A stretch of DNA of 64,000 nt from Desulfobulbus sp. (GCA_040776885.1 JAXGZR010000004.1:240320-304319); one strand, 5' to 3'. Counted from the first letter of the stretch, positions 6,305 to 21,375 are shown. Numbers and translations: made by a program. Notes: generated by a model from the sequence alone, not told the origin.

Positions 6305-7261
6305 ATGCACTACTGCGGGCGCAAACAACCCATCATCATTGCCAATCGCGCCAGCCGGGAGATGGCAGCCCAGGTGGCTCCGCTCTTGGGCCTGGAACTG
6401 ACCGAGATGGATATCCGCGAGTTTGCCGACGGGGAAATCTACCATGCCTTCCCCTGCAGCCTGAGCGGACATGACTTGATTCTGATCGCTGCAACGCCGG
6501 ATGACAGCAGCTTCCAGGAGTTGTTGGATTTGATCGCCGGCGCCCGTTACTGGAACGCGCTCAGCGTCAATGTGGTCATTCCCTATCTGGGCTATTCCAC
6601 CATGGAACGGGCCAAACCGGAATCCGGCGAGATTCCCAAGGGGATTACCCGTGCCCGGCAACTTTTCCGCGCGCGACCGGATTATGTGGCCTTCATCGAC
6701 CTGCACGATGAGGCGGTCATGCATACGCATTCCGGCGAGGTGCGTATTCGTCATTTGTGGACGGAGCGTCTGGCAGCAGAAGAGATCCGCAAGTTGCACT
6801 GCGGAACGAGCGGAATAAACGAAAGCATGGTGCTGGTTTCGCCGGATTATGGCTTTTCCAAGCGGGTGGGTAGACTGGCCAGCCTGCTTGACTGCCCGCA
6901 CACTGCAGCCAACAAGGATCGCTACGGCCAGGATAAAACCATTGTTGGCCAGCTGTCCAGTGTGCTGCAGGGTCGCACTGCCATCATTTGCGATGATATG
7001 ATCCGCACCGGCGGCTCCATGCTGCAGACAGTGGACCGCTGCCTTGAAGCTGGTGCCGTAGAGGTGCTGGTGATGGCTACACATCTGGTGCTGGCCGGCG
7101 AGGCCAGGCAGGCCTTTATCGCCAAGGGCATCCGGCGAATTCTTGGTGCCAATACCTATCCGGGCAGGAAGAGCGACGATTTGCTCCAGGTGTTTTCCGT
7201 GGCACCACTGATTGCCGGGGAACTGAAAAATTATCTTGGTCTTGAGCCGAATATGGCTTGA
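6305..7261 (+). CDS. Divergent ribose-phosphate pyrophosphokinase (Prs-like)
   Basis: FADGE, PYLGYSTMER, DLHD, VSPDYG, IICDDMIRTGGSM (PRPP-binding loop), ATHLVL. Confidence 0.85.
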   Translation: MHYCGRKQPIIIANRASREMAAQVAPLLGLELTEMDIREFADGEIYHAFPCSLSGHDLILIAATPDDSSFQELLDLIAGARYWNALSVNVVIPYLGYSTMERAKPESGEIPKGITRARQLFRARPDYVAFIDLHDEAVMHTHSGEVRIRHLWTERLAAEEIRKLHCGTSGINESMVLVSPDYGFSKRVGRLASLLDCPHTAANKDRYGQDKTIVGQLSSVLQGRTAIICDDMIRTGGSMLQTVDRCLEAGAVEVLVMATHLVLAGEARQAFIAKGIRRILGANTYPGRKSDDLLQVFSVAPLIAGELKNYLGLEPNMA

Positions 7262-13595: not shown

Positions 13596-14252
13596 CTATA
13601 GACCCAGATCCTGATTGATGAGCACGACTCGAATGCGCCCTTTGGGCCAGGATTTTTCGGTGATGGTCCAGGAGTTGCAAATGCGGTCCGGACTTTTGCA
13701 GTCCAGGCAGTGGCCGGTTTTTCTGCAGGGAGTTTTCATGTTGGTGTGGCGGAGGGCATTAATGGGGGCTGCGTAGTTCTTGATGCGCTCCATGGCTGTG
13801 GCCACATTGGTGGTAAGTTTGTTGCGGCCCACGCAGATCACCACATGCCTGGGACCAAAGGTGATCGCTGCAGTCCGATTGCCCACCATGTCCAGATTAA
13901 CCAGTTTGCCGTCTGCAGTGACTGCATTGCTGCCAGTGAAAAAGAGGTCGCAGAGCAGGGCGCGGCGACGGTTTTCCAAAAGTTCTTCCCTGGCCACACC
14001 GGGGATGAAGGTTTCGATCAGTTCAATGGCAGGGTTGTCCCGCAAGACCTCAAGAATGCCGGTGGCGCGCATGGTCAGGGAGTCGCCCCAGGAGGCACTG
14101 CGTACCGTGATGCCCGGCATGATCTCACCAAGGATAATCTCTTTGGCATCCTCTGCCGACTCGGCCTGGTACACGGCAAAATTGTTGGCGGCAAGTGCCT
14201 CGGCGCAGCGGCCAAGTCGCAGTTGCCAGTAGTTTTTTATGTCAACAGACAT
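13596..14252 (-). CDS. LUD-domain (LutC/DUF162-like) protein
   Basis: DLFFTGSNAVTADGKLVNLDMVGNRTAAITFGP, GRNKL, C-terminal PCRKTGHCLDCKSPDRIC. Confidence 0.85.
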   Translation of the reverse strand: MSVDIKNYWQLRLGRCAEALAANNFAVYQAESAEDAKEIILGEIMPGITVRSASWGDSLTMRATGILEVLRDNPAIELIETFIPGVAREELLENRRRALLCDLFFTGSNAVTADGKLVNLDMVGNRTAAITFGPRHVVICVGRNKLTTNVATAMERIKNYAAPINALRHTNMKTPCRKTGHCLDCKSPDRICNSWTITEKSWPKGRIRVVLINQDLGL

Positions 14253-14511
14253 GTTTGTTCCAGTGTGAAAGAAGAGCTGCCGTACAAGTATATCTACCTA
14301 GCATAGTTGCTGCATCGCTGCACGGTCAATTTTTTCCATGAAGATTGTTTGCTTCCGCCTCTGCAGGGCTGTCAACGCCTGGCATGGTTCCTGTTTTCTG
14401 GTGTCTTGGTGTGTCCATCTCCCAGGCCTGCTGCCTTTTTCAGTATCCCTGTTTGTGCTGGCGGGCAGTATACAAAACAAAAAAGCAAATAATTAGTGAT
14501 TGCAAAAAAAG

Positions 14512-14530
14512 TTAGGTTAGGCTAATTAAG
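14512..14530. promoter_or_regulatory. DtxR/MntR-type metal box upstream of feoA
   Basis: TTAGGTTAGGCTAATTAAG; the first 14 nt match 13/14 to the DtxR consensus TTAGGTTAGCCTAA. Lies 6 bp downstream of a TTGCAA -35-like hexamer (14500-14505). Confidence 0.6.
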
Positions 14531-14611
14531 GTGTAAAAAATGCTTCCTCCATAGGTATGCATAGGCATGGAGAAAGCACATCTGTTTTTTCTACATCAAA
14601 TGGAGCACAAC

Positions 14612-14872
14612 ATGTCTCTCCATCGACGCCAGCACGGCAAAAGAAGATGTTGCCGACTTACCGACCTGCAGCCCGGAGATCGGGCCCGCATCCGCTGCCA
14701 CCATACCCAGGGGGCCACCCGTCAACGCCTGCTGGATTTGGGTTTTGTCCCGCAGGTACAGGTAGATGTGATACGCCGGGCCCCCTTGGGTGACCCCATT
14801 GAGTGCCAGATAGACACCTTTAAAGTTGCCTTGCGCCTGGCTGAGGCCGCACTCATCGAAGTGGAACGATAA
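14612..14872 (+). CDS. feoA: Ferrous iron transport protein A
   Basis: RQRLLDLGFVPQVQVDVIRRAPLGDPIE...VALRLAEA; GGAG RBS. Confidence 0.93.
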   Translation: MSLHRRQHGKRRCCRLTDLQPGDRARIRCHHTQGATRQRLLDLGFVPQVQVDVIRRAPLGDPIECQIDTFKVALRLAEAALIEVER

Positions 14873-14921
14873 CCGCAGGACGTTAGCCATTTTTTAACTG
14901 CTCACCCTTAAGGATAGACTC

Positions 14922-17441
14922 ATGGTCTCTGTGCCTGTCTCAAAAAAAACGCTGTGCGTCGGCTTGGCCGGGCAGCAAAATGCCGGTAAATCAACGGTTT
15001 TTAATATGCTTACCGGAGCGAACCAGCATATTGCCAACTATCCCGGTGTGACGGTCGACAAAAAAACAGGGTATTGCATCTACCAGGGTGTGCGGATGGA
15101 GGTTGTCGATTTGCCCGGCACCTACAGCCTCACCTCTTTTTCCCTGGAAGAGCGGGTGGCGCGCGATTTTCTCATCCACGACAAGCCCGATCTTATTGTC
15201 AATGTGGTGGATGCCTCCACATTGAAGCGCAGTCTTTATTTTACTTTTCAAATCATGGAGATGGGTCTGCCGGTGGTGCTGGGCCTCAACATGATGGATG
15301 TGGCCCGAAAAAACGGCATCACCATCGATATTGCCAATCTGGAGCATCATTTGGGGGTGCGGGCCATTCCCCTGATCGGCCGGAAACGCATTGGTAAAAA
15401 GGAGTTGCAGGATGCTATTTTGGCCACGGCCGGGCAGTCGGAGCGCAGCATGCTCCGCATCTCCTACGAAGAGCTTGACGCGGATATTCACACCTTGCAG
15501 CAGCAGGTTGAAACAGCCGGGTTGAGTGTAACCTATCCTGGCCGCTGGCTGGCCATCAAGCTGCTTGAAGGCGACAACGAAGCCGAGCGGATCGTGAATG
15601 GGGCCCTGGGGCCGGACAATCAGCTTGTGCAGTCAGCCAGGCGCGCGCGAACCGCCTTTGCAGACGCACACTATATGGATGTGGCCGACTATATGGTCGG
15701 TTGCCGGGACAAGCTGGCCAGCACCATTGTGCAGTCCTGCGTCAAGGAAAGCCGCAAAGACCGGGTTTCCCTGTCTGACCGGATCGACATGGTTGTGTTG
15801 AACCGGCTGGCAGCGCCAATTTTCCTGATTGCCACGGTTTTTCTTATTTATCAGCTCTCTATTGTAAAGGGCTACGAACTGACCCAGTACTGGTGGCCTT
15901 TCCTGGCCAAGTTCAGGGCCCTGGTGGCCAGTATTCTGCCCGATGCCGGCATGTTGGAAGACAGCTACCTGCGATCCATGGGCCTGTGGATGGTGGATTC
16001 GGCCAATGCCCTGCTCAACTACATCCCAATTTTTCTGATCCTCTTCTCGTTGATCGCCATTCTCGAAGACAGCGGCTATATGGCAAGGATTGCCTTTATT
16101 TTAGATAAGCTGCTGCATTCCTTTGGTTTGCACGGCCAATCAACTCTGCCCTATATCCTGGGCGGCGTCTTTGCCGGCGGTTGCGCTGTGCCCGGGGTTA
16201 TGGCCACCAAGGGCATTCCTGATCATCGCTCCCGTATGGCCACGATCTTGACCGTTCCCTACATGAACTGCCTGGCCAAGATTCCCTTTTACACCCTGCT
16301 CATTAACGTCTTTTTTGCGCCGTACAAGTCATGGGCCATGCTGTTCTTATCCACCATCACCATCTTTGTGGCGCTTTTGGTGGCGCGTTTGCTCGCGGCC
16401 ACGGTGTTGAGAACCACCGAAACCGCTTCCTTTGTTATGGAACTGCCGCGCTACCATGCACCCACCCTGTTTGGCGTGGGCCAACGGGCCATTGAGCGCA
16501 CCTGGCAGTACATCAAGAAGGTGGGCACCATTGTGGTGGCTGTTTCGGTATGCGTTTTTACCCTGTTGCAGTTCCCCGGCATCGGCCAAGACAGGATGGC
16601 CGGATTCCAACAGCAGATGGATGAGGCAGTGGCCAAGTTTCGCAGGGATATTCAGACAGGCGGCTACAGCAGCCGGCTCCAAGATGACGAGGCTCTGCTC
16701 CGCCTGATCAATGTGCAGAGTGCCTACAGAGCCGCCAGGCTCACGGTGAGCGGTGCAGAGGGCGCCCGCAGGTTGGATGCCCGTTATGAAGCGAAATATC
16801 CGGATTTGTTTCCGCTGCTGAAGGCCAGGGGCGACAAGGAGGCACAAGTGGTGAACAGGGCCCTGCGGCAGCTGTCGTCCACACGCGAGCTGCTGCGCCG
16901 GCAGATCAAAGAGGCCCAGATCGAAGCCAGTTTTTTGGGGATGATCGGGCGCTCGCTTGAGCCACTCACCCACTGGGCCGGTTTCAACTGGAAGATCAAT
17001 GTGGCGATCCTTTCCTCCTTTGCCGCCAGAGAGTCCAGCGTCGCCACCATTGGCGTACTCTACCAGCAGGGTGCGGACGAAAGTAAGAGCCTGGAGGAGC
17101 GGATGGGCTCGGAGGCCAGTGACAGCAATTTTACGCCGCTGCATGCCTTGGCGATCATGGTCTTTTTTGCTCTGTACCCGCCCTGCCTGGCCACCACCAT
17201 CATGATCAAGGTGCAAACCGGTTCATATAAATGGATGCTCTTTTCCATTTTCTTTCCCACCGCCCTGGGTTTTATCGCGGCGGTTTTCATCTTTACCGGC
17301 GGTCGCGCCTTGGGGTTCAGCGGCATTCAGATGATGGGCGTGTTTTACGCGCTGGTGGTGCTGCTCACTCTTTTTACCGGGTTTTTCAAATCGTGGCGGG
17401 CCCAGCCGCACCAGGTGCAGGCCAAGATACCTGTAACCTGA
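14922..17441 (+). CDS. feoB: Ferrous iron transporter B
   Basis: G1 GQQNAGKS, NYPGVTVD, DLPGTYSL, NMMD; ILEDSGYMAR, FAARE, LYPPCLAT; large hydrophilic insertion between TM blocks. Confidence 0.96.
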   Translation: MVSVPVSKKTLCVGLAGQQNAGKSTVFNMLTGANQHIANYPGVTVDKKTGYCIYQGVRMEVVDLPGTYSLTSFSLEERVARDFLIHDKPDLIVNVVDASTLKRSLYFTFQIMEMGLPVVLGLNMMDVARKNGITIDIANLEHHLGVRAIPLIGRKRIGKKELQDAILATAGQSERSMLRISYEELDADIHTLQQQVETAGLSVTYPGRWLAIKLLEGDNEAERIVNGALGPDNQLVQSARRARTAFADAHYMDVADYMVGCRDKLASTIVQSCVKESRKDRVSLSDRIDMVVLNRLAAPIFLIATVFLIYQLSIVKGYELTQYWWPFLAKFRALVASILPDAGMLEDSYLRSMGLWMVDSANALLNYIPIFLILFSLIAILEDSGYMARIAFILDKLLHSFGLHGQSTLPYILGGVFAGGCAVPGVMATKGIPDHRSRMATILTVPYMNCLAKIPFYTLLINVFFAPYKSWAMLFLSTITIFVALLVARLLAATVLRTTETASFVMELPRYHAPTLFGVGQRAIERTWQYIKKVGTIVVAVSVCVFTLLQFPGIGQDRMAGFQQQMDEAVAKFRRDIQTGGYSSRLQDDEALLRLINVQSAYRAARLTVSGAEGARRLDARYEAKYPDLFPLLKARGDKEAQVVNRALRQLSSTRELLRRQIKEAQIEASFLGMIGRSLEPLTHWAGFNWKINVAILSSFAARESSVATIGVLYQQGADESKSLEERMGSEASDSNFTPLHALAIMVFFALYPPCLATTIMIKVQTGSYKWMLFSIFFPTALGFIAAVFIFTGGRALGFSGIQMMGVFYALVVLLTLFTGFFKSWRAQPHQVQAKIPVT

Positions 17442-17479
17442 CAGAAGCCGGCAAGCTTTGACGAATCTTACCGGAGGAC

Positions 17480-18373
17480 ATGATGCAAAAATTTTTACCA
17501 GGACCAGTATTGTTGCGGTCAAGGTTTTGGTGCCGCTTTTCCATATGGGGCATCATTGCGCTGCTGGTGCAGTGCCTCTTTGCCGGCCATGCTGCTGCGC
17601 ATTCATTGTTTATTCAATCCGGCAGGTTTCAGGTCAATCAGGGCAAGGCTTCGCCCCTCTTCTTCTGCTATGGTCACCACTTTCCGGTGGACGATGCCAT
17701 CCAGCGGGAAAAATTGGCCTATGTGCGGGTGGTTGCGCCTGATCAGAGCAAAAGCGATGTGGCTCTGCGCCCTGGGCGCTCCCTGCATTCATACCTGATT
17801 ACATACAAAGAACCCGGCACCTATGTGCTGGCTGCTGAAACTGTGCCGGGCTATTTTGCCATGTATCTGGATAAAAAAGGACGTCAACGCCATTCACTCA
17901 AACCCTTGAGCGCTTTTGTCGATGATGCCCAAGAAGTCCGCGCCAGCATGCGCAGCAGCCAGTGGGCCAAGGCCTATGTCTTTAGCGAGAAAGCTTCTGA
18001 ACCAGCCCCAGGCCCGCTTGGGCTGCCCCTGGAGCTGGTGCCTGCAGCCAACCTGGCAGAGCTTAAAGAGGGCGATAACCTGGCTTTTCAGGTGTATGCC
18101 CACAAGAAACCATACAGCGGCGAGGGTGTTTGGGATGCCACCTACATGGGGTTTTCCACTGAGCCGGAAGATATGTATATTCCGCAGACTAAGAGCGCAG
18201 ACGGCAGGTTCACGGTACCGGTTGATCATGCCGGCCGCTGGTTTGTGCGATTTTTTACCAAAAACCCTGCACCAGCCGCTGCCGCCGGTGAATACTTAAC
18301 CGAGAAGCAAACCACTACCTTTGTCTTTGAGGTGCGCAACACGCGCAAGCGGCCTCAAAGCGACAGCCATTAA
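17480..18373 (+). CDS. Periplasmic DUF4198-type (CbiK/NikM-associated) protein, paralog 1
   Basis: Signal peptide ending AAAH, YGHHFP, GLPLELVP, GRWFVR; directly after feoB with GGAGGA RBS. Confidence 0.7.
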   Translation: MMQKFLPGPVLLRSRFWCRFSIWGIIALLVQCLFAGHAAAHSLFIQSGRFQVNQGKASPLFFCYGHHFPVDDAIQREKLAYVRVVAPDQSKSDVALRPGRSLHSYLITYKEPGTYVLAAETVPGYFAMYLDKKGRQRHSLKPLSAFVDDAQEVRASMRSSQWAKAYVFSEKASEPAPGPLGLPLELVPAANLAELKEGDNLAFQVYAHKKPYSGEGVWDATYMGFSTEPEDMYIPQTKSADGRFTVPVDHAGRWFVRFFTKNPAPAAAAGEYLTEKQTTTFVFEVRNTRKRPQSDSH

Positions 18374-18546
18374 ATGTTAAGCGCTAAGAGCCCTGTCGCG
18401 CTGCGGCCTTGTTGGCTGGTGCCGGGCAGTATGATGCACTGCATATCTTTATAACTCCGTATATATCAGCATATATTTGCATGGGCCACGGTCAAGTCGG
18501 CCAGGCTGCAACTCAGCAAAATTAAGCGATGCCGTCAACAGGGTAT

Positions 18547-18677
18547 TTCCAGTTCCAGGTGAAAGGCATGAGGTAAAAAGGCGAGAAATTTGCAAGACCT
18601 GTGCTGGTGTGCGTCTGCTCTCTTTGCAACAGGCAGCCCTTGGAAACGTAAAAAGGTTCTTTGCCCTGGAACTGGAA
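18547..18677. repeat. Perfect 13-bp inverted repeat TTCCAGTTCCAGG / CCTGGAACTGGAA, 105 bp apart
   Basis: Arms at 18547-18559 and 18665-18677 in a 570-bp intergenic gap. Confidence 0.6.
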
Positions 18678-18797
18678 TGCCTCCCATGGCTGCAGCCCTT
18701 TGGCTCGTTTTTCAGACCGTATGTTTTATTTCGCCTACCTTCCTAATTATCTGAAGCTCTTTCCATTTTTTTAATTGCTGCGGGCAGGTAAAAAAGC

Positions 18798-18850
18798 TTG
18801 ACAGAAGAATGCAGGTGTATCATGATGCTAATAATATTAGTCAAGTCTAA
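18798..18850 (+). promoter_or_regulatory. Sigma70-like promoter (TTGACA-17-CATGAT) followed by a second TTAG-N6-CTAA box
   Basis: TTGACA 18798-18803, CATGAT 18821-18826, TTAGTCAAGTCTAA 18837-18850 in AT-rich flanks. Confidence 0.55.
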
Positions 18851-18943
18851 ATAAATTAGCTCATCCTTTATCTTGGGCAGACAGGAAACAAAGAACAACC
18901 ATAAACAAGCAAAACAAAAACCACTGATGGAGGAGTTGTACTT

Positions 18944-19282
18944 ATGTGGCGAAGTAAGAAGTCAGCTGTCAAGAAACTGGGCTATGGGGCCTTGTTGTCG
19001 ATCTTTTTATGGGCCGGCCAGGCCTGGGCCCATACCCCCCTGTGCTCATGCTACGATAACGGTGACGGCAGCATAACCTGCGAAGGAGGTTATTCCGATG
19101 GCTCATCCGCAGCCGGCGTGAAGATGCGGGTTGAACAAGAGGATGGGGCTGTGCTGCAAGAAGGGCAGATGAATGCAACCAGCGAATTTACCTTTGATAA
19201 GCCGGCAGGTGCCTACAAGGTTGTATTTGACGGCGGCGAAGGCCACAGGATTGAAGTTAGCGGCAAGGATATTCTTGAATAA
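18944..19282 (+). CDS. Small exported protein (CbiL/NikL N-terminal-like, HTPLCSC motif)
   Basis: Signal peptide ending AWAH, HTPLCSCYDNGDGSITCEGGYSDGS, C-terminal GEGH; GGAGGAG RBS. Confidence 0.7.
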   Translation: MWRSKKSAVKKLGYGALLSIFLWAGQAWAHTPLCSCYDNGDGSITCEGGYSDGSSAAGVKMRVEQEDGAVLQEGQMNATSEFTFDKPAGAYKVVFDGGEGHRIEVSGKDILE

Positions 19283-19361
19283 GGCACGATGGTTTGTGCA
19301 GGACGCTCCATGCGCGGCTGTACAGGCAAGATGAATACAAGAGGACAAGAGGAGAAAGTAC

Positions 19362-20174
19362 ATGAAAAAGTTTGTGAGTGCCCTGGTCTGCCTGGCGTTC
19401 CTTGCGCCGGCCGCACCAGCATTGGCCCATTTTCAAATTATCTACACGCCGGAAATGGCCATGAAGGAGGGCGGGAAAATCGATTTGGCCCTGGTCTTTT
19501 CTCACCCCTTTGATGCCGGTCACACCATGGACATGGGCGAGCCGGAGCAATTTTTCGTTATTCGCAGCCGGGGTGAGAATCCGCCGCAGAAAACTGATTT
19601 GCTCAAAACGCTTAAACCCATCACCTGGGCCAGTCTGACCAATAGCGGCAAGGCCTGGGAGACCAACTATGCCGTCAGGGGGGGCGACTATATTTTTTGC
19701 CTGGTTCCCCAGCCCTACTATGAACCGGAAGAGGAGTCCTATATCAAGCAGAACACCAAGCTGATTGTCAATGTGGGCGGCGAGCCCGGAGCCTGGATGG
19801 AGCCGGTGGGCTTGCCTGCGGAAATTGTCCCCTTAAATAAACCGTATGACCGCTGGACCGGCAATGTGTTTCAAGGAAAGGTGCTTTTGCACGGCAAACC
19901 TGTAGCTGGCGCAGAAATTGAAATTGAATATCTGAACCACGAGCCCCTGCTCGACGAAAAGGCCTTTGCCAAAAAAGCGGCGGTGGCAGCGCCCCAGGAA
20001 GCCTTTGCCTTACAGACCATTTTTGCCGATGACAACGGCATCTTTACCTTTGGTATCCCCAAGGCCGGCTGGTGGGGCTTTGCCGCCCTGGATCTGGATC
20101 CTGCATACACCTATAAAGGCAAAAAATGCTCCCAAGATGCGGTCATCTGGATGAAGGCCGTTGATATGCAATAA
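19362..20174 (+). CDS. Periplasmic DUF4198-type protein, paralog 2
   Basis: ALAHFQ, FSHPF..GHTMDMG, PVGLPAEIVPL, FQGKVLLHGKPVAGAEIEIEY, GWWGFAAL. Confidence 0.85.
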   Translation: MKKFVSALVCLAFLAPAAPALAHFQIIYTPEMAMKEGGKIDLALVFSHPFDAGHTMDMGEPEQFFVIRSRGENPPQKTDLLKTLKPITWASLTNSGKAWETNYAVRGGDYIFCLVPQPYYEPEEESYIKQNTKLIVNVGGEPGAWMEPVGLPAEIVPLNKPYDRWTGNVFQGKVLLHGKPVAGAEIEIEYLNHEPLLDEKAFAKKAAVAAPQEAFALQTIFADDNGIFTFGIPKAGWWGFAALDLDPAYTYKGKKCSQDAVIWMKAVDMQ

Positions 20175-20373
20175 ATTTTTCAGCTCCTCCAGGAGGCGTC
20201 ACCGGGCATTTTCTCGCACTCACCTTTTGCCACCTGTGCCCGGTGGCGTATTTGTTCCCAACTCTTTACCAGAGGAATAGAAGCTATTACGCGGGGCTGC
20301 AAAGATACGCTTTGTGGTCCTTGCGCAGGTGAGAGGGATATTTTTTTATCAAATTTCATGAGGCTTGTGCACG

Positions 20374-20568
20374 ATGAGTTCTACCCTGCAAATCATCATT
20401 GTGGCCGCCATCGTAGCCGGTGCCGGCTGGTATTTGTACCGCCGCTTTAAACGCATGCTCGACCCAAACCAGCCTGCATGCGGTTGCGGCTGCGGGAAAA
20501 GCTGCGCGGCACAGCCCCCTGCTGAAGCAGAGGAAAATAAGGCCCACATTACGCCTGGGCACAACTAA
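20374..20568 (+). CDS. FeoB-associated Cys-rich small membrane protein
   Basis: Single TM (QIIIVAAIVAGAGWYLYRR) followed by ACGCGCGKSC. Confidence 0.85.
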   Translation: MSSTLQIIIVAAIVAGAGWYLYRRFKRMLDPNQPACGCGCGKSCAAQPPAEAEENKAHITPGHN

Positions 20569-20592
20569 ATTTTTTCAACAACGGAGGTAACG

Positions 20593-21375
20593 ATGCATCG
20601 GCTGATGAGCATTTTTGTCTTGGCGTTTTCCCTGGTCTTGCCCTGGCAGGCCTTTGCCCATGATTTTTGGGTGAATGCGTCCTACGAGGTCGCAACCCAG
20701 CAAGTTACTGCCCAAATTGGCTATGGTCATGGTTTCCCTGCTCCGGAAGCAATTGCTGCAGACCGGTTGCACATTTTCAAGCCGCTTCGCCTGCTGAGCA
20801 GTGAAGGCACCACCGAAATGCACCAAAAGGGAGAAAATTATGCCTATGAGCTGGCGGCAGCATTGGAAAAAGGCAGCTATCTTGTGCTGGGAGACTATAC
20901 ACCCACCTTCTGGTCCAAAAATGCAGCCGGCTGGAAACAGGCCAACCGTACCCAGATGCCGGACGCCAGCTATTGCGAAGAAGCGGTGATGAGTGCCAAA
21001 GCCATCTTGAATGTGGATGGCAGCATTGCTAGCGAACTGGTCACCCAAGCGGTCGGCCAGCCGCTCGAGATTGTCCCCCAGGTGGATCCCGCCACTGTAC
21101 AGCCCGGAGAAGTCTTTCCCGTACAAGTGCTGTATGAGGGGAAGCCCGTTAAAACCGCCGAACTGACGGCCACCTTCGAGGGATTTTCCGAAAAGGAAAG
21201 TAAGGTCTTTTATGGCCGAACTGACCTCAATGGCATGATTGACATTATTCCGCTCAAGGCGGGCTACTGGCTGGCCAAGGTACAGCACAAAGTTCCCTAT
21301 ACAGCAGATACCAAGGTGTGCGACGAGATTGTTGCGGTAGCCACCCTGAGCTTCCACATTGGGGAACAAAGGTAA
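20593..21375 (+). CDS. Periplasmic DUF4198-type protein, paralog 3
   Basis: AFAHDFWV, IGYGHGFP, GQPLEIVP, VQVLYEGKPV, GYWLAKVQH; ACGGAGG RBS. Confidence 0.85.
   Translation: MHRLMSIFVLAFSLVLPWQAFAHDFWVNASYEVATQQVTAQIGYGHGFPAPEAIAADRLHIFKPLRLLSSEGTTEMHQKGENYAYELAAALEKGSYLVLGDYTPTFWSKNAAGWKQANRTQMPDASYCEEAVMSAKAILNVDGSIASELVTQAVGQPLEIVPQVDPATVQPGEVFPVQVLYEGKPVKTAELTATFEGFSEKESKVFYGRTDLNGMIDIIPLKAGYWLAKVQHKVPYTADTKVCDEIVAVATLSFHIGEQR

Follow-up and report, generated by a model that had tools for sequence, protein, structure and literature searches.

Two promoters of an iron-uptake locus in Desulfobulbus sp. each carry the palindrome TTAG-N6-CTAA, which raises the question of whether the locus is controlled by a DtxR/MntR-type repressor rather than by Fur, as an earlier note on this DNA had proposed. 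The window (i.e., the whole stretch of DNA analyzed, 64 kb) contains the palindrome only twice, and reading of the sequence confirmed both boxes where they had been placed, at 14512-14525 (box 1, TTAGGTTAGGCTAA) and 18837-18850 (box 2, TTAGTCAAGTCTAA). Box 1 lies 5' of a feoA-feoB-DUF4198 operon and box 2 lies 5' of a second operon (Table 1). Both boxes appear to be real, conserved operators of the DtxR/MntR repressor family, which here seems to fill the role held by Fur in other sulfate reducers.

The feoA reading frame is open from 14567, and comparison of relatives led to the ATG at 14613, behind GGAG, as the likely start. The feoB orthologs were 53-79% identical. The first product of the second operon, a small exported His/Cys protein, has weak similarity to the N-terminal half of NikL. 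A scan of 14000-19500 for RNA elements in Rfam, with E up to 1, gave no match.

Table 1. Boxes, promoter-like elements and genes of the locus (positions are those of the window)
Feature	Position	Strand	Details
Possible weak second box	14493..14506	.	TTAGTGATTGCAAA, one core mismatch; begins 19 bp 5' of box 1
Weak promoter-like element toward feoA	14500..14528	+	TTGCAA, 17-nt spacer, TAATTA
Stronger promoter-like element	14509..14537	-	TTTACA, 17-nt spacer, TAACTT
Box 1	14512..14525	.	TTAGGTTAGGCTAA, predicted one-dimer DtxR-family operator, 88 nt 5' of likely feoA start codon
feoA	14613..14872	+	Pfam FeoA, 3.7e-20
feoB, long type, 839 aa	14922..17441	+	Pfam FeoB_N, Gate, FeoB_Cyto, FeoB_C
DUF4198 periplasmic protein, last gene of feoAB operon	17480..18373	+	Pfam DUF4198, 1.8e-40
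Promoter-like element of second operon	18798..18826	+	TTGACA, 17-nt spacer, CATGAT; consensus scan, 10/12 matches
Box 2	18837..18850	.	TTAGTCAAGTCTAA, predicted operator, best PWM score in genome
112-aa exported His/Cys protein	18944..19282	+	NCBIfam NF058648, 3.5e-15, under its cut-off
DUF4198 protein	19362..20174	+	Pfam, 6.5e-59
DUF4198 protein	20593..21375	+	Pfam, 4.1e-39

Sequence and Genomic Placement of the Boxes

Iron boxes of IdeR/DtxR in Actinobacteria are 19-bp sites, TTAGGTTAGSCTAACCTAA, and TTAGGNNNNCCTAA was proposed as the consensus for one dimer (Marcos-Torres et al., 2021; PMC8464063). Both boxes in the window fit the one-dimer consensus, in which the inverted half-sites, TTAG(G) and (C)CTAA, are spaced by 10 bp. 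Box 1 is the genome's best match to the 19-bp DtxR/IdeR consensus, with four mismatches that all fall within the last five bases, and box 2 has seven mismatches; the two-dimer site was therefore rejected and each box was taken as a 14-bp site for one dimer. The 13/14 identity of box 1 to the DtxR core that had been claimed was borne out against bases 1-14 of the DtxR 19-mer of PMC7762939, and identity to the IdeR iron box of PMC4598388 and PMC8464063 was 14/14. Box 1 has G5 and, at position 10, G rather than C; box 2 has neither G5 nor C10, and these two positions were not conserved across 42 related sites. The possible second box upstream of feoA overlaps the plus-strand -35-like hexamer and ranks seventh by PWM among intergenic matches; it is not conserved elsewhere, and its role as a box is speculative.

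The bare pattern is not over-represented genome-wide; its placement is the non-random part. The 2.7-Mb Desulfobulbus genome contains nine sites vs. about 14 expected under a Markov model, of which six are intergenic (3.3 expected across the whole genome), and shuffled windows contained a mean of 0.31 matches, with two or more in 5 of 100 shuffles. In three related genomes, the pattern was 4-8 times rarer than the reversed control. The high-scoring sites occur only at metal loci: of the six intergenic sites, five lie in four promoter regions of two such loci, and these five have the highest PWM scores in the genome, box 1 ranking third. One-mismatch boxes were rejected as marking further regulon members because their PWM scores are sharply lower than those of the five exact matches; the candidates next in rank sit either between two convergent genes or beside unrelated ones.

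The second metal locus is on contig C3, outside the window, and has three boxes. It encodes a porin of the LbtU family of siderophore porins (NF033652, 1.8e-80), a DUF2325 protein, a DtxR-family regulator (P0001, C3:254332-254787) and a ferrosome-type (fez) cluster, in which the P0001 gene is directly 5' of genes for a small membrane protein, a FezB-like P1B-6-type ATPase and a FeoA-domain protein. The ATPase has an arginine-rich N-terminus (RIRLR), and its motifs are HNIST, in agreement with the fez signature HNxxT, and DYSCV, in which the last residue of D[Y/F]SCA is Val rather than Ala. A second feoAB of the genome, of the standard type and on contig C6, has no box, an observation that was counted against the proposal.

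Promoter Elements and Transcription

Overlap of the boxes with the core promoter, either the -10 region or the transcription start, was predicted from consensus hexamers, of which those at feoA are weak. Box 1 occupies the spacer of the plus-strand element and overlaps its -10. This element scored under the threshold of the consensus scanner, and its geometry (-35, 6 nt, box) was found again in relatives. The minus-strand element faces a LUD-domain gene and is overlapped by box 1 as well; read in the minus orientation, the box (C4:254831) has a -35-like hexamer at a distance of 6 nt. The weakness of the plus-strand feoA promoter, with better hexamers facing the opposite way, was also counted against the proposal. 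Box 2 follows the -10-like hexamer at a distance of 11 nt and covers the position where transcription is expected to start. Among related sites, 12 have a -35-like hexamer exactly 6 nt from the box, compared to about one at any other distance. The earlier view that both boxes are positioned to block transcription is to be read as a prediction from consensus promoter hexamers. Metatranscriptome contigs revealed low-level transcription of both operons; their use for mapping transcript starts was rejected because they are too sparse, one beginning at 18855, five bases past box 2, and another spanning box 2.

Conservation among Relatives

All 4-N(0-12)-4 inverted repeats upstream of 44 orthologous feoAB loci were counted in an unbiased dyad scan. 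TTAG-N6-CTAA was the top-ranked dyad, present at 19 of the 44 loci vs. 0.4 expected (P about 2e-27), and the loci that carry it are spread across Desulfobulbales and Desulfobacterales. None of 14 Chromatiaceae loci had the pattern. The motif is thus conserved in orthologous promoters, as the earlier note had asked of it. A counterpart to box 2, downstream of feoB, was detected at L073, L078, L089, L090, L100, and L108. Desulfobulbus rhabdoformis DSM 8777 (G007), a relative available in culture, also has these boxes.

The relative with the most similar FeoB (L073, 79% identical) has both metal loci fused into one cluster, in the order efp, boxes, porin, box, DUF2325, small gene, dtxR, feoA, feoB, DUF4198, box and two DUF4198 genes. 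The product of its dtxR gene, just 5' of feoA, is 57.5% identical to P0001, and the two proteins are sisters in a 15-member clade (clade C; SH-aLRT 98), of which 10 members adjoin long-type feoAB. Nine of the 15 clade-C genes have a box within 1.5 kb; for four more (P0001, L073, L008, and L013) the boxes are 1.8-3.4 kb away in the same gene cluster. Around clade-C genes there are 16 boxes in 51 kb vs. about one per 300 kb of genome.

Absence of a Fur Box

A consensus scan of both promoters for E. coli Fur, dFUR and PerR boxes detected none above the intergenic background. The best matches had 4-8 mismatches and were equaled or bettered in 6% to 76% of 909 intergenic regions, depending on consensus and promoter, so the earlier statement that no Fur box is seen here stands. 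The host lineage is Desulfobulbus and not Desulfovibrio, the genus named in its Fur comparison. Two Fur-family genes are present in the genome; all model scores are under the cut-offs, so that an iron-sensing Fur may still be among them. One precedes the desulfoferrodoxin gene and has its highest scores with PerR models, a PerR-like context; the other is transcribed divergently from a ZnuA-like gene, a Zur-like context. Desulfotalea psychrophila is a member of the Desulfobulbales, and the one representative of that order in the 2004 reconstruction of delta-proteobacterial regulons. In that study, a dFUR box was found 5' of feoAB in every delta-proteobacterium studied except D. psychrophila, which is also without a FUR_Delta ortholog (Rodionov et al., 2004; PMC545781).

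DtxR-Family Regulators

The genome contains two members of the DtxR/MntR protein family, P0001 and P0002. Both are encoded outside the window, where the earlier note had expected the regulator to be, and the P0001 locus is the one on contig C3 with three more boxes. Each has the winged-helix domain PF01325 and the dimerization/metal-binding domain PF02742 (1.1e-13 and 1.5e-17 for P0001; 3.3e-16 and 1.5e-21 for P0002) and, at 152 and 164 aa, no third domain. DtxR and IdeR have a C-terminal SH3-like third domain and the primary-site ligands Met10, Cys102, Glu105, and His106. The MntR proteins of Bacillus subtilis and E. coli, members of the DtxR family that sense Mn(II), have two domains and the ligands D8, E11, H77, E99, E102, and H103. 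In MntR numbering, the proteins studied here have D8, E11 (Lys in P0001), H77, C99, E102, and H103, and position 99 is Cys in 69 of the 69 Desulfobacterota proteins aligned. This predicted ligand set is closer to that of MntR than to that of DtxR, in which the first position is Met.

The best PDB matches were MntR and a Deinococcus Mn sensor, and the best NCBIfam matches were MntR models, all under their equivalog cut-offs (77.7 and 91.2 bits vs. cut-offs of 153 and 138); the DtxR model gave 43.6 bits vs. a cut-off of 290. DtxR/IdeR in the strict sense was rejected by the lack of the SH3-like domain and by Asp in place of Met10, although Cys, Glu and His are kept. MntR in the strict sense was rejected by Cys at position 99, Lys at position 11 of P0001 and the scores under the equivalog cut-offs. 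Of the earlier assignment, the family is retained; instead of being of the three-domain DtxR/IdeR type, the proteins have two domains, the length of MntR and a hybrid set of ligands.

P0002 belongs to clade A and has a Cys-rich C-terminal tail; clades A and B share an uncharacterized Cys-rich C-terminal module (CPxGG...GFGYYC...C...C). Autoregulation of P0002 was rejected as there is no box near its gene. The genome G009 was rejected as a clean case of clade A only because its boxed feo-porin-DUF2325 contig stops exactly where the regulator gene is expected.

Proposed Regulation and Alternatives

We propose that each 14-bp box is an operator for a single dimer of a DtxR/MntR-family metalloregulator. 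With metal bound, the repressor would sit on TTAG-N6-CTAA over the spacer and -10 region at feoA and over the transcription start at the second operon. The metal sensed would most likely be Fe(II). When metal is sufficient, both the feoA-feoB-DUF4198 operon and the operon of the NikL-like protein and two DUF4198 proteins would be turned off, and the same regulator would control the porin, DUF2325, P0001 and fez genes on contig C3. This explanation of the window boxes and the C3 locus as a whole is probable. The earlier proposal of a DtxR-family regulon for metal uptake is supported, and the results on DtxR genes, conservation and a Fur box, each named as a possible refutation, did not go against it.

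The binding protein may instead be P0002, alone or with P0001, so that P0001 would not be the master regulator. At seven loci of Desulfocapsaceae and Desulfobulbaceae, a P0002 ortholog (64-68% identical) comes immediately 3' of the long-type feoB, and boxes lie within 1.5 kb of 4 of the 17 clade-A genes. The predicted box type is generic for the DtxR family in the genus and common to all clades. The complete genome G018 has a clade-B protein as its sole DtxR-family regulator and tandem boxes 5' of a standard feoAAB, and P0002 could therefore bind the same sites. Yet neither box nor metal genes were found at the P0002 locus, whereas P0001 is inside a boxed cluster and its ortholog is inside the fused cluster of L073, and box linkage is stronger for clade C. 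We infer that P0001 rather than P0002 is the binding protein and consider binding by P0002, alone or with P0001, unlikely, though deserving some weight.

A second alternative accepts the boxes as DtxR-family operators and supposes that Mn(II) is sensed, with the long-type FeoB a manganese importer and the regulators MntR-like Mn sensors. Manganese import has been reported for some FeoB paralogs. MntR-like residues are present at five of the six ligand positions (D8, E11, H77, E102, and H103), and the two-domain length and the best PDB and NCBIfam matches agree with an Mn sensor. Neither Nramp nor MntABC or mntH was found in the genome, and the single ZnuA-type binding protein adjoins the Zur-like gene, so that no classical Mn importer is available as a target and an Mn importer would otherwise be absent; the second, boxless feoAB could serve iron. 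However, the co-regulated genes are iron-typed (the FezB-like P1B-6 ATPase cluster, the LbtU-family porin and the FeoA-domain proteins), Glu99 of MntR is replaced in every member by Cys, as in Cys102 of DtxR/IdeR, and the standard feoAAB of G018 carries the same boxes with a clade-B protein as the only regulator of the family. The lineage is also without the FUR_Delta iron regulon and thus needs some iron sensor. Sensing of Mn(II) is improbable on this evidence; the putative target genes point to Fe(II), while the metal-ligand residues of the sensors appear nearer to those of MntR.

That the window boxes are chance palindromes in AT-rich promoters with no regulatory role would agree with the genome-wide count and the shuffled windows, but is hardly credible given the cross-species dyad enrichment, the density of boxes around clade-C genes and the fixed spacing to -35-like hexamers.

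Repression by a DtxR/MntR-family protein may be part of a wider pattern, which we put forward tentatively and with the balance slightly against it. The Desulfobulbales would be without an iron-sensing Fur and would use two-domain DtxR/MntR-like paralogs (at least three clades in Desulfobulbus) with an MntR-type site changed from Glu99 to Cys and 14-bp one-dimer operators in all clades. The P0001 clade would control one iron-starvation regulon, in which ferrous-iron import by long-type FeoAB and the DUF4198 proteins of the periplasm would be joined with a porin of the outer membrane, a DUF2325 protein and the formation of ferrosomes.

Implications

The proposed mechanism, in which a metal-loaded repressor occupies a palindrome in the promoter, is textbook, and the finding extends a known kind of regulation in a solid but unsurprising way. 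It provides a candidate for the iron regulator and operator missing from D. psychrophila in the 2004 reconstruction. The candidate regulon comprises feoAB, three DUF4198 proteins, the NikL-like protein, the LbtU-like porin, the DUF2325 protein and the fez cluster; it offers hints to the function of DUF4198 and DUF2325 in anaerobes and a suggestion of how this group controls its ferrosome genes. The Desulfobulbales include the cable bacteria, and the motif offers a means of annotating iron regulons in metagenome-assembled genomes of the order, those of cable bacteria among them.

Comparison with Known Systems

The boxes resemble those of IdeR/DtxR in their TTAG...CTAA half-sites 10 bp apart, box 1 being the first 14 bases of the IdeR consensus, in a predicted location over the -10 or start site that would suit repression by occlusion, and in their iron-uptake targets. 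They differ in being single 14-bp one-dimer units rather than 19-bp two-dimer sites, with the inner G5 and C10 unconserved; their putative regulators, in a Desulfobacterota anaerobe, are without the SH3-like domain and have Asp for Met10. The likeness to MntR is in the two domains, the length of about 150 aa, the best PDB and NCBIfam similarity and the retention of D8, H77, E102, and H103, with E11 kept in P0002. Unlike MntR, all members have Cys for Glu99, P0001 has Lys for Glu11, scores are far under the equivalog cut-offs, and the predicted targets are feoAB, fez and the porin rather than mntH or mntABC, which are absent from the genome.

The FUR_Delta regulon of Desulfovibrio and Geobacter, with the dFUR box WTGAAAATNATTTTCAW (Rodionov et al., 2004; PMC545781), has the same predicted role: with iron sufficient, feoAB would be repressed together with hypothetical porins and a P-type ATPase. 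The regulator family and the operator are different, and the promoters studied here have no dFUR box. FeoA, FeoB and DtxR are frequent neighbors of fez, and Fur and DtxR genes are among its common neighbors (Grant et al., preprint, 10.1101/2020.01.10.902569). In the C3 cluster, the regulator gene is followed by those for the small membrane protein, the FezB-like ATPase of P1B-6 type and the FeoA-domain protein; the ATPase and the FeoA-domain protein agree with the description of fez in that preprint, except that the FezB motif is DYSCV rather than D[Y/F]SCA. Whereas Grant et al. described the neighborhood only, an operator motif and a regulon of fez, feoAB, DUF4198, porin and DUF2325 are proposed here.

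Palindromic boxes and promoter geometry in the window

The palindrome TTAG-N6-CTAA occurs only twice in the 64-kb window, at the two promoters where the earlier note had placed it: box 1 in the 314-bp gap 5' of feoA, and box 2 ahead of a second operon encoding a NikL-like protein and two DUF4198 proteins. Shuffled versions of the window contained a mean of 0.31 matches, and two were reached in 5 of 100 shuffles. Both operons were present in contigs of anaerobic-digester metatranscriptomes, which do not resolve transcription starts, and the genes are therefore expressed in situ.

A promoter-like element of operon 2 (TTGACA-17-CATGAT) ends 11 nt before box 2, which thus lies over the expected start site. 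The plus-strand hexamers of feoA are weak (TTGCAA-17-TAATTA); the better pair, TTTACA-17-TAACTT, is on the opposite strand and points toward the LUD-domain gene. Box 1 overlaps both pairs. In 12 site-orientations the distance between the box and a -35-like hexamer (TTGACA, zero or one mismatch) was exactly 6 nt, and every other distance had about one case, so that the box covers the spacer and the -10 element opens with the distal TAA of the box. Judged by consensus hexamers, it is plausible that the boxes are placed so as to block transcription, which the earlier note had taken as seen.

Between box 1 and the feoA start codon is a loopless 19-nt inverted repeat (TGCTTCCTCCATAGGTATG / CATAGGCATGGAGAAAGCA, 79% complementary) that could be an RNA hairpin or a further protein-binding site. 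In operon 2, the DUF4198 genes are separated by a 418-bp gap with short ORFs only. An Rfam scan of the region gave no match.

Coordinates of the features discussed (C, contig; L, extracted locus)
Feature	Location	Description
Box 1	window 14512-14525	TTAGGTTAGGCTAA
Inverted repeat	window 14541-14578	feoA leader
feoA	window 14567/14613-14872	first gene of box 1 operon
feoB	window 14922-17441	long type, 839 aa; box 1 operon
DUF4198 gene	window 17480-18373	box 1 operon, after feoB
Box 2	window 18837-18850	TTAGTCAAGTCTAA
Exported protein	window 18944-19282	112 aa, weak similarity to NikL N-terminal half; operon 2
DUF4198 protein	window 19362-20174	operon 2
Gap	window 20175-20592	operon 2
DUF4198 protein	window 20593-21375	operon 2
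P0001	C3:254332-254787	minus-strand cluster; likely 152 aa; PF01325 and PF02742
Boxes of P0001 cluster	C3:256631, 258178, 258244	
Ferrosome-like (fez) cluster	L005 1088-4393 (C3:251087-254392)	minus strand
DUF2325 gene with preceding box	L005 5289-6614	minus strand
DUF2325 gene with preceding box	L073 3836-5167	
DUF2325 gene with preceding box	L174 571-1896	
DUF2325 gene with preceding box	L175 3141-4352	
P0002	C1:794325-794816	164 aa, Cys-rich tail
Second feoA-feoB operon	C6:158617-161429	standard length
G012 feoA box	L108 ~6575-6610	within 34-bp palindrome
G001 long-type feoB	L042, G001 C1:895274-897733	one in-frame TGA

Motif frequency and conservation

As a bare pattern the box is not enriched, since the whole source assembly, of 2.7 Mb on six contigs and with the window at C4:240320-304319, contains nine matches versus about 14 expected under a first-order Markov model; its intergenic DNA contains six versus 3.3 expected. 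The evidence lies in placement, not in pattern frequency. Two metal loci, with four promoter regions between them, account for five of the six intergenic matches, and these five sites have the top five scores, with a clear gap before the next match, under a PWM derived mostly from sites of other genomes. In the related genomes G009, G012 and G018, TTAG-N6-CTAA occurs 5-10 times per genome versus 40-47 for the reversed control (4-8 times rarer) and is strongly avoided outside functional sites.

The motif was conserved in orthologous promoters. When every 4-mer/N0-12/reverse-complement dyad was counted in 620-bp windows upstream of feoA-feoB at 44 Desulfobacterota loci, TTAG-N6-CTAA was the top dyad by far (19 loci versus 0.4 expected, P ~2e-27); it was found at none of 14 Chromatiaceae loci. 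The consensus was WWWW-n-TTAG-N6-CTAA-n-WWWW with the inner six bases unconserved.

The Desulfobulbus MAG G012 keeps both window boxes in the same layout. Its feoA box, with a core of 14 bp, lies inside a perfect 34-bp palindrome (AACAATAATA-TTAGACCAATCTAA-TATTATTGTT). Long-type feoB orthologues were detected in six of 40 related genomes searched, besides the source genome, and at 67 loci in the species collection. The orthologue of G001, which has no exact box upstream, may be a pseudogene or reflect a sequencing error. The second feoA-feoB operon of the source genome has neither a TTAG-N6-CTAA box nor a recognizable Fur box.

Candidate regulators

Two genes of the DtxR family and two of the Fur family are present in the source genome, all four outside the window, where the regulator had been predicted to be encoded. 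Scans with E. coli Fur, dFUR and PerR consensus sequences gave no match above background at either promoter, which confirms the earlier reading and agrees with Rodionov et al. 2004 (PMC545781), who reported a dFUR box ahead of feoAB in each delta-proteobacterium they studied but Desulfotalea psychrophila. One Fur-family gene is upstream of desulfoferrodoxin and scores best with PerR models; the second is transcribed divergently from a gene of ZnuA type. In the literature searched, no account of feo control by a DtxR-family protein in Desulfobulbales was found.

The DtxR-family protein P0001 is encoded in a cluster with three boxes, in the order box pair, LbtU-family porin (NF033652, 1.8e-80), box, DUF2325 protein, small membrane protein, P0001, 141-aa protein, P-type ATPase and FeoA-domain protein. 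The last three form a ferrosome-like cluster directly 3' of P0001; the 141-aa product is a membrane protein, the ATPase is of P1B-6 type, and the FeoA-domain protein has 272 aa. The DUF2325 protein (~440 aa, coiled coil in the middle and Cys-rich at the C-terminus) has a box 5' of its gene in four genomes, and its membership of the predicted regulon is conserved. The second paralog, P0002, has unrelated neighbors and no box nearby.

Both source loci are joined in one cluster at L073, a Desulfobulbaceae MAG locus whose FeoB is the most similar to that of the window (79% identity). Its order is efp, two boxes, porin, box, DUF2325, small gene, dtxR, feoA, feoB, DUF4198, box and two DUF4198 genes, and its dtxR product is 57.5% identical to P0001. 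The closest relative of P0001 in D. rhabdoformis and in G005 is encoded, together with its ATPase, 3 kb away from feoAB, and two boxes lie in the interval.

A tree of 71 sequences had three groups. Clade C (15 rows, SH-aLRT 98) places P0001 with its L073 sister, and the majority of its genes adjoin long-type feoAB. Clade A (18 rows) includes P0002, and its genes in Desulfocapsaceae are directly 3' of long-type feoB; clade B has 23 rows. A box was within 1.5 kb of 9/15 clade-C, 4/17 clade-A and 0/23 clade-B genes. This co-localization favors P0001 as the box-binding regulator, and P0002 may share the predicted sites. The complete genome G018, whose sole DtxR-family member is a clade-B protein, has tandem boxes upstream of feoA-feoA-feoB; within this genus, therefore, boxes of this type go with the DtxR family in general.

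Every clade-A and clade-B protein has a C-terminal extension (CPRGGITWESGFGYYCSNNCTDQDCSRCP; P0002 residues ~128-164) with four to six conserved Cys, which is absent from clade C, including P0001. It matched nothing in Pfam or PDB and may serve as an additional metal or Fe-S module.

Metal specificity

With position numbering taken from the alignment, MntR positions 8, 77, 99, 102 and 103 were Asp, His, Cys, Glu and His in all 69 aligned Desulfobacterota proteins. At position 11 most had Glu; P0001 and three further clade-C proteins had Lys, and a single clade-A protein had Val. The Cys at position 99 presumably is the counterpart of Cys102 in the DtxR primary site, and Asp stands where we take DtxR to have Met10. 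Apart from this Cys the ligand set is MntR-like, which makes Mn(II) a real rival as the metal sensed, but the predicted targets (feoAB, a FezB-like ATPase and an LbtU-type porin) are of iron type. The source genome has no Nramp gene, and its single ZnuA-type binding protein adjoins a Zur-like gene. Fe(II) is most likely the metal sensed.

Comparison with known systems

The earlier proposal of a DtxR-family regulon for metal uptake is supported, the regulator family being present, the motif conserved and a Fur box absent; from sequence, the predicted regulon is a DtxR/MntR-family regulon of ferrous-iron uptake in Desulfobulbus. Ferrosome formation is probably under the same predicted regulon. 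The motifs of the P0001-cluster ATPase (DYSCV, HNIST and N-terminal RIRLR) closely resemble the FezB (P1B-6) signatures of the ferrosome preprint (D[Y/F]SCA, HNxxT and an arginine-rich motif), in which FeoA, FeoB, Fur and DtxR are common neighbors of fez clusters.

The published consensus is TTAGGTTAGCCTAACCTAA in the case of DtxR (PMC7762939) and TTAGGTTAGGCTAACCTAA in that of IdeR (PMC4598388); bases 1-14 of the IdeR iron box are identical to box 1. Marcos-Torres et al. (PMC8464063) showed one CCTAA repeat to be read per monomer, with a half site able to take one dimer, and proposed the 14-bp consensus TTAGGNNNNCCTAA; the Desulfobulbus motif takes exactly this form, its outer four bases being fixed in each repeat. 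The P0001- and P0002-type proteins are without an SH3-like domain and score far below the cut-offs of the NCBIfam MntR and DtxR models. Metal-uptake control by the DtxR/MntR family is already known, and the predicted Desulfobulbus regulon adds a new case, for which the comparisons support operators taking one dimer each and regulators that have two domains and a hybrid ligand set.
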